From positions 32,001 to 96,000 of IMG/VR virus record IMGVR_UViG_3300035390_000014: a stretch of 64,000 bases of DNA. The stretch is one strand, 5' to 3'. Numbering within the stretch: position 1 is the stretch's first letter; each line of letters starts with the position of its first letter. Shown here piece after piece: positions 33,639 through 60,503 of the stretch. Source of the DNA: a virus. Its lineage: Duplodnaviria; Caudoviricetes. The position numbers and the translations under genes are program-made. The notes under the pieces are model-generated. The model was not told the DNA's origin, ran no database searches, and saw only the letters and a list, made by a program, of their open reading frames with translations.

Positions 33639-34694
33639 TTATATCTCCTTTAATAATTCATTTAATCTAATAGAAGAATTTTTACTTTTACTTCTATTTT
33701 CACAATCTTTTAAAATTTCTAAATTTTTCCAATGCCCAATTATTTTATGGTCAATATTATTTTTAAATCCATCATATATAGAATATTTATGATCTAAATC
33801 ATAGCCAAATTCACGACCTCTTAACTCAAAATTTTTAATTTTATGACCATATTTTTGGATAGAATTGTATGTTGATTTATAAACCAAATTTATATAATTA
33901 TTATATTCATTAGATATATTTGGGTCAGAATGTAAATTAAATAATTCACATTCTTGTTTGCATTCGTCACAACAATAAAAATATGATGTATTATTATTTA
34001 ATCCTGTAATACGTTGTTCAATTTCTCTTTTTTCTGGAGTAAACCAACCACCTTGTTCTTTTGAATTAGAACAATTGTTATTTTTACAATGAACTTGTAT
34101 TTCTTTTTCACCCGGTTTGTCAGGATTATATCTCATTTCTTCAACTTTAGTTAATATTGGGTGTTTTCTTTTTAATTTTTCTATAGTTCTTTTTTTAGAG
34201 TTAATTCTATGATTTCTTTTTTCATCTGATTCATTATCAAAATATTTTTTAGAACCAAGTTTAGCTTTTTTAATTCTTAAATTGCGTTCTTCAATGGTTT
34301 CATTTTTAAATCTTTTTAATGAAGCTTTAGAGCAGTTTTTTCTTTTAATATAATTTTTTTTCATTAAAGGTATTATTTTTTCTCTAAATTTATTATCAGA
34401 CCACATTTTAATTGAATTGATTCTTTGTTTTTCTAAAAATTCTGGAGTATTACATGTTTCTTTTAATTTTTTAATTCTCTGATTTTTTTGTTCTTCAGTT
34501 TCATTAGCTAATTGTCTTAACGTATTTTTTCTAGCTTTTTCTTTAAATTCTTTTGTGTTATGAGTTTCTTTTGATTTAATACTAGTTTCTTTTCTTTTAA
34601 TTGGACATTGTTGCCAAAATTCACAACATGTATATTTACCACTTTTATTTTTAAATTTTCCTTCTTGCCCACAACCATATATACATAATTCCAT
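33639..34694 (-). mobile_element. Free-standing HNH homing endonuclease
   Basis: N-terminal CxYGCG zinc motif, basic repeats, Cys cluster, C-terminal DLDHKYS...NLEIL...ENRSK. Confidence 0.75.
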
Positions 34695-36302: not shown

Positions 36303-37292
36303 TTAGCTTAAAATATTTGTACAGCTTATATTAATTGGAGTATCATTAAAATCTTTACCTGTTTTGTTATAATAAACATGTAAGGATTTAATTATGTGTT
36401 TATTATATTTCATAATTTTTTCATAGTAACTTATCGGTATTTCTCTATCTGAAAGAATATGTATTGTAGGTCTAAATATTAATTCATTGAAAATAACGCT
36501 TTTAATAGCTGCTACATATGAAGTTGATAATGCTGCTATATAAGCTCTTACTTTATTTTTTATACCTAATACATCATATATATGTTCCGCATATATATCA
36601 AATATTCCCTCTGCCATTATTATATGATTTGAATCTCTTCTATTTCCAAATAATTTATAATAGTCTAAAAGCTGGGAAGGTTGTAAATCTAATTTATAAT
36701 ATCTAAAATTTGATGTTCCATCTATATTTCTCAATGACACGCATGAATTATTTTCAGTTAAAAATCCAACAAAATTTGTATGCAAATAATCTTTAAATCT
36801 TATAACTTTTTCTGGTAATTGAATATTATTAATTTTTAATAATTCATTTACATCAAATACTAAACCTGGTACTGTTGATAGAGGTATATTAGCAAATTTA
36901 AATCTTTGTTTGATATATAAGGCTTTTAATTTAAAATAATCCTCTCTTAAGTCTGGTAAGGTTATATCTTTTGGTTTATAAATATTTTTTTCAAATTTTA
37001 CTTTTTCTACTTTAAAATGTTTAACTTGCTCCTGATTAACATATTTTATAGAAGTATCATTACCTTCTATTTTTTCTGTTAATTTTCTTATTAAACCACT
37101 TTGATTACACCCACCTCTAAAACAATGAAATATTGGATCATGTAGAGATATCCATAAATGACTTTTACTACTTGACATAGTTTTATCACACCAAGGACAA
37201 GGAACAATAATATTTTTAGGATTCATTTTAACTGGACCTAAATTTTGCTCCAAATAATCTATAAATCCATCATTATATATTCCTACTGTCAT
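36303..37292 (-). CDS. DNA primase (zinc finger plus TOPRIM)
   Basis: CPWC...HCFRGGC; IIMAEGIFD; ILSDRE. Confidence 0.88.
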   Translation of the reverse strand: MTVGIYNDGFIDYLEQNLGPVKMNPKNIIVPCPWCDKTMSSSKSHLWISLHDPIFHCFRGGCNQSGLIRKLTEKIEGNDTSIKYVNQEQVKHFKVEKVKFEKNIYKPKDITLPDLREDYFKLKALYIKQRFKFANIPLSTVPGLVFDVNELLKINNIQLPEKVIRFKDYLHTNFVGFLTENNSCVSLRNIDGTSNFRYYKLDLQPSQLLDYYKLFGNRRDSNHIIMAEGIFDIYAEHIYDVLGIKNKVRAYIAALSTSYVAAIKSVIFNELIFRPTIHILSDREIPISYYEKIMKYNKHIIKSLHVYYNKTGKDFNDTPINISCTNILS

Positions 37293-37528
37293 TTAATTAT
37301 CCTTTTTTTAAATGTATAACCATACATTACAAATGAGTGATTTCAACCAATACAATCAATTATATATTCAGAAAATGCCTGTCTAACATTGAATTTATTA
37401 TTTGTTCCACAATCAGGACAAATATTCTTAATTAAATGTTCAGTAGTTCCAAGACGAGATCTAGCATAAACTTTATCACATATCTCAGAACATATTGGTT
37501 TAACCAAACATTCTCTACATGGATACAT
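37289..37528 (-). CDS. Zinc-ribbon protein with in-frame TGA (37343-37345) at a CxxC position; candidate selenoprotein (79 aa)
   Basis: ...CPDCG...IIDCIG[TGA]NHSFVMYGYTFKKRIIK*; the read-through frame ends in an ATGA overlap with the primase start. Confidence 0.7.
37307..37333 (-). promoter_or_regulatory. Candidate bacterial-type SECIS element
   Basis: AAUGUAU-GGUU-AUACAUU perfect 7-bp stem; loop begins 21 nt after the UGA; extendable below a bulged U. Confidence 0.6.
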
Positions 37529-37800
37529 TAGCTTTCAATATAACCTTCTGCTAGTTTAGTACATCTAACAATCATCCATTTAAAGAAAGTTTCTGAATCT
37601 TTAATATCTTTCATTTTAATTTGAGAATACATAATATCTTTCATTGGTCTAAAAAAAAGATCAAAATTTAATGTTTCCCCTGATGGAGATTCTACTTTTT
37701 TCATTGGACAACCACCTGCTACTGGAGGATGTGAAAAACCACATTCTGGACATATTCCTTGACTCATACCCATTCCACTATTACCTTGTTCATTACCCAT
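37528..37800 (-). CDS. Small hypothetical protein with CPECG
   Basis: 90 aa ORF with AGGAG RBS. Confidence 0.75.
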   Translation of the reverse strand: MGNEQGNSGMGMSQGICPECGFSHPPVAGGCPMKKVESPSGETLNFDLFFRPMKDIMYSQIKMKDIKDSETFFKWMIVRCTKLAEGYIES

Positions 37801-39362: not shown

Positions 39363-40369
39363 CTAATTACAAATTTTATTTGCTAAATTTCCTGTGGAAC
39401 ATTCTGTTCCGGTTTCATGTCCATATTTGTAGTGACATTTTTCACAACAAGCAATACCAAAATCAGGATCTAAAACAAAACCAGGTTCTAATTTTTGTGG
39501 GCGAGAATGATGTGCATTTGTTGCAGGTTCTCCACAATATTCACATAAATAATTAGCTCGTTTTAATACAGTTGTTCTCCAAGTTTGATATTCTTCATAT
39601 GTATATAATTTATCAATGTTTTTATTAGGATCACTTTTTAAATGAAATAGAGGACATTCTATTTTACATCCTTCTGAACAATATAAATAACACCCACCAT
39701 TCCCTTTTTCAATTTGTCTTATTCTTTCGTAAAATTGAATTCCAGTTGGTGTAAACCAACCATTTTTTTCTTTTGAATTTTGACATAAATGATTTTTACA
39801 ATGAACTTGTATTATCTTTTCATTTTCTTTACCTGGTTTATATCTCATCTTTTCAACTTTAGAAAATGTTGGATATCGTTCTTTAATTTGATTTATTGTT
39901 ATTTTTTGTGATATTCTATTTTTCTCTAAAACTTCTTTAGAATAAATATTAGTCTTTCCCTTATTCCATGGTATATTTCCAATTAAAGATTTAGATATTT
40001 TTTTCTTGTTTTATTTGTATGAGTTTTTTTATAAAAAGGATTTTTATCTCCAACCATTAATCCTTTGTGAGATATACTTAATTTTTTCCTATGTTCTTCG
40101 GAAAATATTTTACCTTTACTAGATTCTGACATCTTTTTTCTAACTTCATAAGAAAGAGTTTTTCCTTTCATTACAGAAGGTCTTCCTTTCCCAGATTCAC
40201 TCATTTTCTTCTTAGTTTCTTTGGAATGTTTATATCCTATAGATCCAGTTGCTTTTATCTTTGAATTTAGCCGACAAACTGGACATTTAGAATAATGAGA
40301 TGAACAACACCACCTACCATTCTTGAATTGATATTTTGCTTCTTTACCACAACCATATTCACATATCAT
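39363..40369 (-). mobile_element. HNH homing endonuclease with NUMOD3-like repeats, interrupted by a 1-nt frameshift near 39995-40001
   Basis: One extra A in the A7 run joins track ORFs 39983-40369 and 39363-39848 (…TRKKISKSLIGNIPWNKG…); paralogue of 33639-34694. Confidence 0.75.
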
Positions 40370-56887: not shown

Positions 56888-57175
56888 ATGCCAGGAGTAG
56901 CAAGAAAAGATGATGTTTGTACTGGGCATGGGTGTTATCCATCAAGACCAAATACTAGTTGGTCATCTGACACTTTTGTAAATGGGCGAAATGTTCACAG
57001 AAAAGGCGACTCTTGGGCTGCACATTGTTGAGGTATTCCATGCCATGGAGGTTCCCTGGCTAGCGGCTCAAGCACACATTTTACAAATGGTAAACAAACC
57101 GGAAGATGTGGTGATCCTGTTAGTTGTGGTTCCTCCGTTGCCTCATGCTCTGGAAATACAATAGTAGGTGGATAA
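56888..57175 (+). CDS. PAAR spike-tip protein (gp5.4-like) with in-frame TGA (57029-57031); candidate selenoprotein (95 aa)
   Basis: Missed by the ORF track. MPGVARKDDVCTGHGCYPSRP...FVNGRNVHRKGDSWAAHC[TGA]GIPCHGGSLASGSSTHFTNGKQTGRCGDPVSCGSSVASCSGNTIVGG; AGGAG RBS; TAA abuts the next ATG. Confidence 0.88.
57042..57060 (+). promoter_or_regulatory. Candidate bacterial-type SECIS element
   Basis: GCCA-U-GGA-GGU-UCC-C-UGGC; the GGU loop occupies nt 19-21 after the UGA. Confidence 0.6.
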
Positions 57176-58910: not shown

Positions 58911-60503
58911 ATGATGGTAAAAAAAATATCTTTTATAAAACTTATTAGATTATGGGGTATTATTTTTATAAGTTCACTTGTTGGTATTATTATTAGTATT
59001 GACATTATTATTACCTATAATGATTTTAATATTCGTATGGATACATTACGTACAAATTATATTAAACAACAAAAAAAAGATGTTAAACGTGAAGTTAATC
59101 GAGTTGTTGAGATGATTAGTTGTGAAAGAATGCAAGATAAAAATGATGAACATACAAAAAGAAGATGGTTAGAAAGAATTAATTATATACGTTTCGGAAA
59201 AAATGATAATGGATATTTATTCGCAGGATCGTGGGATGGAATTAGTCTTGCCCATGGAGATATACCCGAACTAATTGGTAAAGATATTTTAGATTTTACT
59301 GACAGTAAAGGCAATAAAACATCACAACTACTAATAGCTACTTCAAAAATTGAAGGTGGAGGATTTGTTCCTTTTTGGTGGATAAAACCAGATACAGGAA
59401 TAGAAAGTTCTAAGATTACATATGTTGAAGGAATACCAGACTGGGAAATGCTTATTGCTGCAGGAATTTATGATGATGATATAGAGCATGATATAACAAT
59501 TTTACATAATACATTAAATGAACAAATGATATCAAAAATTGGTGTTTTAATTATATTTATTATAATTACATTTTGTGTATTTATATTTCTATTTAATTTT
59601 TTAAGTGGTAAACTAAAAAAAGATTTTAATTTATTTATTTCATTTTTTAAAAATGCAGCTTTATCTGATAAAAAAATTGATAATAAATTTATTAACTATA
59701 TAGAGCTTGAACAAGTATCAGAATATATAAATCAGATGATACAAGATAAATCAGATGTTCAACAAACTATATCAGACGAAAGATTGAAAACTGAAAGACG
59801 TTTAGAACAATCAAGAAAAATGGAATCAATTGGAACATTAACGTCTGGTATTGCTCATGATTTTAATAATATTCTTTTTATAATAAAAGGTAATATTGAA
59901 TTATTGATGATGACTGATAAAAATGAAAAGTTTGATATAATAATAAAAGCTAGTAATCGAGCTATAAAATTAATTGAACAAATTACATCATTTAGTAGAC
60001 ATGATGATGTAGAATTAAAAGATGTTAATATAAAACCAATAATAGTAGAAAGTATTAATTTAAGCAAATCATCAATTTCAGAAAATACAAGCATTATAAG
60101 TGATATAAAAGATGGAAATTATATAGTTAAAACTGATGAAATAAAAATTGGACAAGTGGTTTTGAATTTAATAACAAATGCCTGTCATGCTGTTGAAGAT
60201 ATTGAAGGTAAAATTTTAATTAGTTTGAAAAATATAAATATTCATAATGGTGATTTAATTAAGAAAAATTTACCAAAAGGAGACTACGCTCAATTAAAAA
60301 TTACTGATAATGGGTGTGGGATTGATCCCGAAAATTTAGATAAAATATTTGATCCTTACTTTACTACAAAAGATATATCTAAAGGTACTGGATTAGGATT
60401 ATCTATTGTATATGGAATTATTAAAGAATCTAAAGGTTTTATTAATGTACAAAGTGAATTGAATATTGGAACTACTTTTGATATTTTTATCCCACTTGTT
60501 TAA
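58911..60503 (+). CDS. Membrane sensor histidine kinase with single Cache domain, no receiver domain
   Basis: Two TM helices around NGYLF...DG...HG...LIGK...D..G...WIKP; H-box GIAHDFNNIL; N-box QVVLNLITNA; DNGCGI; FTTK; GTGLGL. Confidence 0.93.
   Translation: MMVKKISFIKLIRLWGIIFISSLVGIIISIDIIITYNDFNIRMDTLRTNYIKQQKKDVKREVNRVVEMISCERMQDKNDEHTKRRWLERINYIRFGKNDNGYLFAGSWDGISLAHGDIPELIGKDILDFTDSKGNKTSQLLIATSKIEGGGFVPFWWIKPDTGIESSKITYVEGIPDWEMLIAAGIYDDDIEHDITILHNTLNEQMISKIGVLIIFIIITFCVFIFLFNFLSGKLKKDFNLFISFFKNAALSDKKIDNKFINYIELEQVSEYINQMIQDKSDVQQTISDERLKTERRLEQSRKMESIGTLTSGIAHDFNNILFIIKGNIELLMMTDKNEKFDIIIKASNRAIKLIEQITSFSRHDDVELKDVNIKPIIVESINLSKSSISENTSIISDIKDGNYIVKTDEIKIGQVVLNLITNACHAVEDIEGKILISLKNINIHNGDLIKKNLPKGDYAQLKITDNGCGIDPENLDKIFDPYFTTKDISKGTGLGLSIVYGIIKESKGFINVQSELNIGTTFDIFIPLV

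Follow-up and report, generated by a model that had tools for sequence, protein, structure and literature searches.

A candidate phage selenoprotein: an in-frame UGA at a zinc-ribbon cysteine position followed by a SECIS-like hairpin

A UGA codon inside a small zinc-ribbon gene of an uncultured sediment phage is probably decoded as selenocysteine (Sec), which would make the gene a phage-encoded selenoprotein gene. The gene lies on the minus strand of a 64,000-nucleotide stretch of DNA, referred to here as the window, comprising bases 32001-96000 of one 202,719-bp IMG/VR virus record (IMGVR_UViG_3300035390_000014). The record has a G+C content of 30%, is classed as linear and has a CheckV completeness of 65%. 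With genetic code table 11 the gene is an open reading frame (ORF) of 61 amino acids at 37343..37528, in which the N-terminal cysteines C4, C7, C13 and C17 are followed by a CPDC motif and C59, and which ends IIDCIG at the TGA of codon 62 (37343..37345). Beyond this TGA the frame stays open for the 17 codons NHSFVMYGYTFKKRIIK (37292..37342) and closes at a second TGA (37291-37289) lying over the ATG of the next gene (37292-37290), so that stop and start form an ATGA overlap at 37289..37292. Gene callers give the 61-amino acid ORF here instead of the 79-residue product of the extended frame. On comparative evidence it is proposed that the gene encodes a 79-residue zinc-ribbon protein in which codon 62 is recoded to Sec by the SelB protein of the host, and a probability of roughly 0.6 is attached to this reading.

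The position of the UGA within the protein family is the first support for recoding. A word-indexed search found two relatives. P0004 is 47% identical and reads C-Q-N-C-K-H-V-F-F-M through the site, and its gene ends, with an ATGA, on the downstream gene that also follows the window gene. P0005, a tandem paralogue on the contig of P0004 (L002), ends C-N-N-C-N-H-S-F-T-M. A profile search over 1.84 billion representatives gave 138 family members. Among 137 of them the column corresponding to the TGA holds Cys in 128, a gap in seven, Leu in one and ‘W’ in one. The cysteine at this column (C62) is also nearly invariant in a 56-sequence alignment (A3). The Cys-bearing representatives extend about 17 residues beyond the column, and the tail of the window gene aligns as a homologue of the C-termini of P0004, P0005 and other members, including the conserved H, F and M of the family. 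A preliminary description, made from the window sequence alone, had proposed a zinc ribbon with the UGA in the place of its fourth Cys and with a second CxxC completed by read-through, and the family bears this out. Homologues that all ended at the UGA, or that lacked the fourth cysteine, would have spoken for a plain stop codon; the relatives continue and keep the cysteine.

The family layout is an N-terminal CxxC-x5-C-x3-C cluster followed by a C-terminal CPDC...CxxC-x-H-x-F unit. Pfam, PHROGs and NCBIfam contain no family for the gene. The family profile matched the C-terminal zinc ribbon of the RNA polymerase I subunit RPA12 with E = 5e-6, the next matches being the ribbons of RPC10, RPB9 and eL43. 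An AlphaFold2 model of the 79-residue protein has a mean predicted local distance difference test (pLDDT) score of 81.8, rising to ∼90 over residues 20-79, and the tail, which is translated only if the UGA is read through, supplies two of the four beta strands in the model (residues 65-69 and 72-77, pLDDT ∼90). Foldseek found nothing significant in the PDB, the weak hits at the top of its list being zinc ribbons. The predicted protein has the two CxxC knuckles (CPDC and C-I-G-U) and the beta-hairpin architecture of a classical zinc ribbon. It resembles the ribbons of RPA12, RPB9, eL43 (L37Ae) and the C-terminal domain of TFIIS in having two knuckles about 18 residues apart flanked by beta-hairpins, but differs in the additional N-terminal cluster and, for the window member, in having the fourth ligand encoded by UGA. 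According to the model, half the sheet would be missing from a 61-residue product, together with one metal ligand. The related phage contig L002 carries two tandem zinc-ribbon paralogues of 80 and 100 amino acids at 1127-1668, both with TGT at the fourth Cys and with the same flanking genes.

The UGA is found in a second lineage. The single ‘W’ of the family column belongs to P0003, encoded on a 697-bp contig (L001) from a different sample, and the recorded protein requires TGA to have been translated as W. In the DNA of L001 the same codon is TGA, the frame beyond it is again open for 17 codons up to an ATGA, and the 21-nt segment at the hairpin described below is identical. The window and L001 genes are 82% identical in DNA sequence. 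By the Nei-Gojobori method, the non-synonymous and synonymous divergences (dN and dS) are 0.21 and 0.35 for the gene body, giving dN/dS ∼0.6, whereas the tail has dN 0.075 and dS 0.44, giving dN/dS ∼0.17 from six substitutions, three synonymous and three non-synonymous. The downstream gene has dN 0.05 and dS 0.44. Thus the tail appears to change as coding sequence does and to be more conserved than the gene body, although the statistical power of this comparison is low. The pair does not look like a pseudogene or nonsense allele, neither the TGA nor the open tail having been lost at dS ∼0.4, again with low power.

Directly downstream of the UGA, the transcript can form a hairpin similar to a bacterial Sec insertion sequence (SECIS) element. 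The hairpin (37311..37328, minus strand) has a perfect 7-bp stem, AAUGUAU pairing with AUACAUU (arms 37328-37322 and 37317-37311), and, beginning 21 nt downstream of the UGA, a GGUU loop (37321-37318). The stem, loop and spacing had been given in the preliminary description and were found to be correct; a bulged U reported below the stem was not, the predicted fold having instead a 2x2 internal loop followed by three more pairs. According to the consensus for bacterial SECIS elements, the apical loop has 3-9 nt, the upper stem has 4-16 bp and the loop lies 16-37 nt from the UGA (PMC13188914). The consensus also specifies a G within the first two loop positions, mostly a G followed by G or U, and a minimum free energy (MFE) no higher than -7.5 kcal/mol (PMC13188914). 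The phage hairpin lies within the consensus in its loop, stem, G position and spacing. The MFE of the 60 nt starting at the UGA is -7.6 kcal/mol for the window and -7.5 kcal/mol for L001, right at the energy limit. For 45 nt the MFE is -5.7 kcal/mol with z = -1.24 relative to shuffled sequences, so that the folding energy alone is unexceptional.

Among the 8838 TGA triplets of the genome, 5.3% pass the full consensus and 2.5% do so when G[G/U] is required as well. A stricter descriptor was drawn from the features of selD SECIS elements in eight Desulfobacterales genes with one in-frame TGA (L110-L117), which have regular stems of 6-8 bp, loops of 3-6 nt beginning GG and spacings of 17-21 nt. 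The descriptor required at least six regular pairs, a 3-6 nt loop, GG at loop position 1 or 2 and a spacing of 16-22 nt. It matched seven of the eight selD elements, the zinc-ribbon site and the site in a nuclease gene described below, and it matched 23 of the 8838 phage TGA triplets (0.26%). Long open frames on both sides of the TGA were present at only two of these 23, the zinc-ribbon and nuclease sites. When only the 68 ORFs ending in TGA were considered, the zinc-ribbon gene was the one ORF with a strict hairpin. Among the homologues, the strict hairpin was present in both of those with TGA and in none of the five with TGT, which is a small sample, and imperfect proto-hairpins were visible in two of the TGT homologues. 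As the descriptor was written after the data had been seen, these frequencies serve as guides and not as P values.

Recoding by the SelB of the host is the best explanation of these findings and accounts for all of them, the support being comparative throughout. The 7-bp hairpin with its GGUU loop, 21 nt downstream of the UGA, would act as a SECIS element of the bacterial type. Host SelB carrying Sec-tRNA(Sec) would bind the hairpin and deliver Sec to the UGA, where it would replace the fourth metal ligand (CPDC...C-x-x-U). The last two beta strands would then be made, and translation would terminate at the TGA overlapping the ATG of the downstream gene. Ribosomes that failed to recode would release a 61-residue fragment with one ligand fewer and only half the sheet. 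The phage would supply the cis signal only, with selA, selB, selC and selD provided by the host.

With E. coli fdhF, the prototype, and other bacterial selenoprotein genes the phage gene shares a UGA at the cysteine of its homologues, a small hairpin inside the ORF directly downstream, a 4-nt GG(U) loop, a 7-bp upper stem, a 21-nt spacing and retention of the UGA in an orthologue. It differs from them in being a phage gene with no trans factor in the record, in the AU-rich hairpin close to the energy limit without a bulged U, and in the UGA replacing a structural zinc ligand and not a redox-active cysteine. The Desulfobacterales selD elements resemble the phage site in the UGA, the regular 6-8 bp stem, the 3-6 nt loop starting with GG and the 17-21 nt spacing. 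However, they are GC-rich, with 60-nt MFE values from -10 to -21 kcal/mol against the -7.6 kcal/mol of the phage, and most of them have GGA or GGC in the loop and one has GGUC, whereas the phage loop is GGUU.

The same pattern occurs in two other genes of this phage. The preliminary description had named one further UGA, and this is real and lies at 57029-57031, codon 48 of a PAAR spike-tip gene (56888-57175, plus strand) that is missed by standard gene callers. Pfam identifies a PAAR_motif over residues 24-86, scoring above the cut-off at E = 1.2e-9, and this match runs across the TGA, which is followed by a GGU-loop hairpin. At the TGA column 86 of the 119 homologues have Cys and three have ‘W’; for two of these three the DNA, from the metagenomic lineages L016 and L028, has TGA. 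The hairpin in L016 has one stem change, with the pair retained as G-U. Since the conserved peptide CHGG[SA]LA accounts for part of the PAAR hairpin, and a GC-rich Cys homologue can form the same hairpin, this hairpin is weaker evidence than the other two. The third gene lies outside the window, at genome positions 151846-152694 on the plus strand (L015), and encodes a homing-endonuclease-like nuclease with a TGA at 151924, the place of the last Cys in a CxYGCG...CC-x6-C module. This position is Cys in five out of five paralogous N-terminal modules of the same genome (CC-x6-C-P), and the hairpin, which begins 10 nt past the UGA, has a perfect 8-bp stem and the loop AGGUC. In the genome, for which the preliminary description had suggested a scan for in-frame TGA codons with hairpins at Cys positions, three genes are interrupted by a TGA, zinc ribbon, PAAR and nuclease. 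A scan of the ORF layout found no further gene split by TGA. The only other same-frame junction, at genome position 162702, was rejected: the stop there is an ordinary one, and the DnaB-like helicase gene after it starts with TTG and has a GGAGG Shine-Dalgarno sequence. Scans for in-frame TGAs using codon and hexamer coding potential were abandoned as too noisy on windows of 12-20 codons, where known positives were missed. The genome contains six paralogous genes with the CxYGCG...CC-x6-CP N-terminal module, probably homing endonucleases, spread across the replication and tRNA regions; paralogues are found at window positions 33639-34694 and 39983-40369 and at genome positions 110755, 115978 and 124032.

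Tentatively, the phage may possess a selenoproteome of at least three genes, with Sec at structural metal-binding Cys positions and with host SelB acting on phage SECIS hairpins. The zinc-ribbon gene had originally been put forward as an independent second selenoprotein within such a phage selenoproteome, and this interpretation is partly supported. In its favour are the Cys-column UGA in a family that continues past it, the second lineage with both UGA and hairpin, two further Cys-position UGAs with GGU-loop hairpins, and Sec machinery in the clade of the probable host. All of this evidence is comparative, and the phage record lacks selC and selB.

The decoding machinery would come from the host. 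No selC, selB or selD, for which the preliminary description had advised a search, is present in the 203-kb record. Nor do the 203 kb contain a tRNA(Sec) or any tRNA whose anticodon is UCA. The record does contain 26 tRNAs, one of them with a CUA anticodon, and a tmRNA, in a cluster at 106-148 kb. The sole clue to the host is a Cache/HAMP histidine kinase (window 58911-60503, plus strand), whose nearest bacterial relatives are almost all from Desulfobacterales or Desulfobulbales, with 40-47% identity over the catalytic half; protein-atlas taxa for relatives of the kinase were mixed. Full-length SelB together with selD containing one in-frame TGA was found in all five Desulfobacterales/Desulfobulbales genomes searched and in two of 14 control genomes. 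Given that the clade nearest to the kinase possesses SelB and a selD with an in-frame TGA, a Sec-proficient host, as judged from this one gene, is plausible.

Several observations weigh against Sec recoding of the zinc-ribbon gene. The hairpin is AU-rich and weak, with z values of -1.24 or smaller in magnitude against shuffled sequences, and it passes the energy threshold only when the lower stem is included. Rfam searched at a permissive E-value gave no SECIS match at any UGA site, a null result that says little because short bacterial SECIS hairpins are poorly covered in Rfam. The loop of E. coli fdhF is 3 nt nearer to its UGA than is the phage loop. Only two TGA-bearing sequences are known, the window and L001, and the dN/dS of the tail depends upon six substitutions. 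The 21 identical bases at the hairpin are not unusual, and are weak evidence by themselves, because the same pair shares a 42-nt identical block elsewhere. The gene is dispensable: in a ∼90% identical relative from a microbial-mat run (X4) the whole zinc-ribbon gene is absent (window 37285-37534) and the stop of the upstream gene directly abuts the ATG of the downstream gene, thus the gene is accessory. Among known selenoproteins, Sec would be unusual as a structural zinc ligand. Finally, the record, 65% complete, has none of selC, selB and selD, and the host assignment comes from one gene at 40-47% identity.

Some of these observations would be expected if the TGA were a true stop. The gene would then be a truncated or decaying allele in which a single base change turned the Cys codon into TGA, the product would have 61 residues, and the tail and hairpin would be coincidental or kept for other reasons, the tail for instance because ribosomes bind there to translate the next gene, or because of structure in the mRNA. 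An accessory gene missing from a close relative, with a body evolving as fast as dN/dS 0.6 and a thermodynamically unremarkable hairpin, fits such an allele, and the Shine-Dalgarno sequence of the next gene does lie within the last 15 nt of the tail. The imperfect proto-hairpins in two TGT homologues, the existence of just two TGA sequences and the six substitutions behind the tail statistics point the same way. Nevertheless a true stop is unlikely. The TGA, the frame and the hairpin have all been retained at dS ∼0.35-0.44, conservation is higher in the tail than in the body, and truncation would cost the product two of its four strands and a ligand that is nearly invariant. Furthermore, this is the sole one of 68 TGA-ending ORFs to have a SECIS-like hairpin, and there are two parallel cases in the genome, in one of which the PAAR domain is incomplete without read-through.

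If the UGA is read through, the residue inserted might be other than Sec. In the ‘ReC’ system, reportedly found in some anaerobes, SelB delivers Cys using a non-canonical tRNA(Cys) with a UCA anticodon, and insertion could also be by an opal suppressor encoded in the missing third of the genome, or by tRNA(Trp) or tRNA(Cys) in near-cognate decoding that the hairpin promotes. Plain Cys would serve at all three UGA sites, each being a structural metal-ligand Cys position; a phage with 26 tRNAs including a CUA amber suppressor interferes with decoding, and the record is only 65% complete. However, the 203 kb contain no tRNA with a UCA anticodon. UGA suppressor tRNA(Trp) of the Hirsh type has a U11-A24 pair, and the phage tRNA(Trp) has C11-G24 instead. 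A general suppressor would leave SECIS-like hairpins at fixed spacing at three sites unexplained and would act in a genome where 68 ORFs use TGA as their stop. Insertion of a different residue is regarded as decidedly unlikely. It is very improbable that the TGA is an error of sequencing or assembly or a sense codon of table 4 or 25, although the gene caller used for the L001 record did take TGA as W. The Logan assembly of run X1, possibly the source sample, reproduces the window sequence without difference at a depth of 9 (contigs from X1 cover the TGA site, those from X2 and X3 do not), and L001 has the same TGA in another sample. As for the code, TGA ends 68 of the 307 phage ORFs (22%; TAG ends 39 of the 307), and 36 of these 68 stops are ATGA overlaps, as had been said of the coupling pattern in the preliminary description. 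A genome-wide reassignment of TGA was rejected, since TGA is a normal stop elsewhere and no other gene is split by it; the three gene-interrupting TGAs all fall in Cys columns, none in Trp or Gly columns, and no UCA tRNA was found. Phages that have reassigned TAG or TGA by means of a suppressor tRNA resemble this one in having a stop inside a phage gene and a suppressor tRNA (here for UAG), but here only three sites are affected, all in Cys columns with a hairpin downstream. As no gene besides these three is split by TGA in the ORF-layout scan, site-specific recoding and not a change of genetic code is indicated.

Recoding to selenocysteine has been described in cells and in a small number of animal viruses. 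Full-text literature searches found no report of a natural bacteriophage selenoprotein, and phages and viruses go unmentioned in a 2026 review of prokaryotic selenoproteomes (PMC13188914). Should the zinc-ribbon gene encode a selenoprotein, phages of selenium-using anaerobes would be able to exploit the SelB pathway of the host with a cis hairpin alone, and structural zinc-ligand positions would be able to hold Sec. Standard gene callers would systematically truncate or split such phage genes. The hairpin would provide a compact natural SECIS for testing, and the UGA would serve as a marker of host range, with full-length products made only in Sec-proficient hosts. Were all three genes to encode selenoproteins, the output of replication-module and virion genes would depend on the selenium status of a Sec-proficient host.

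The gene downstream of the zinc-ribbon gene (36303..37292, minus strand) encodes 329 amino acids with an N-terminal CxxC...H...CxxC motif and an EGxxD motif. It had been called a primase, but this name found no support, as searches of Pfam, PHROGs, NCBIfam and PDB sequences gave no significant match and the only weak match was to a PHROG of unknown function. That read-through might couple its translation to Sec availability, as the preliminary description had suggested, remains speculative, and the gene has its own AGGA Shine-Dalgarno sequence 7 nt before the ATG. The ATGA overlap between the two genes is an ancestral arrangement, being present in Cys-bearing homologues as well as in L001, L002 and other relatives. 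Before the 61-codon ORF come a gene for a clamp loader and a number of small genes rich in Cys. Neither the zinc-ribbon gene nor the downstream gene has relatives in the phage collection (searched by blastn) or in IMG/VR. A search of public runs located the stretch in sediment metagenomes and found no RNA run containing it.

Three features of the tRNA region may be recorded. The tRNA with the CUA anticodon, an amber suppressor to which ARAGORN gives the label ‘Pyl’, lies at genome 147668-147743 (L019:1669-1741), and no clear TAG-split gene was seen despite its presence. An Rfam match to YrlA (Y RNA-like) within the tRNA cluster, at genome 137646-137761 (L020:347-462), has E = 3e-5 and 35.8 bits, short of the gathering score of 69. 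A tRNA-like element at genome 148408-148483 (L019:2409-2484), not called by ARAGORN, scores 26.7 bits, just below the tRNA gathering score; its D arm is truncated, its variable region is long and its anticodon appears to be ACG.

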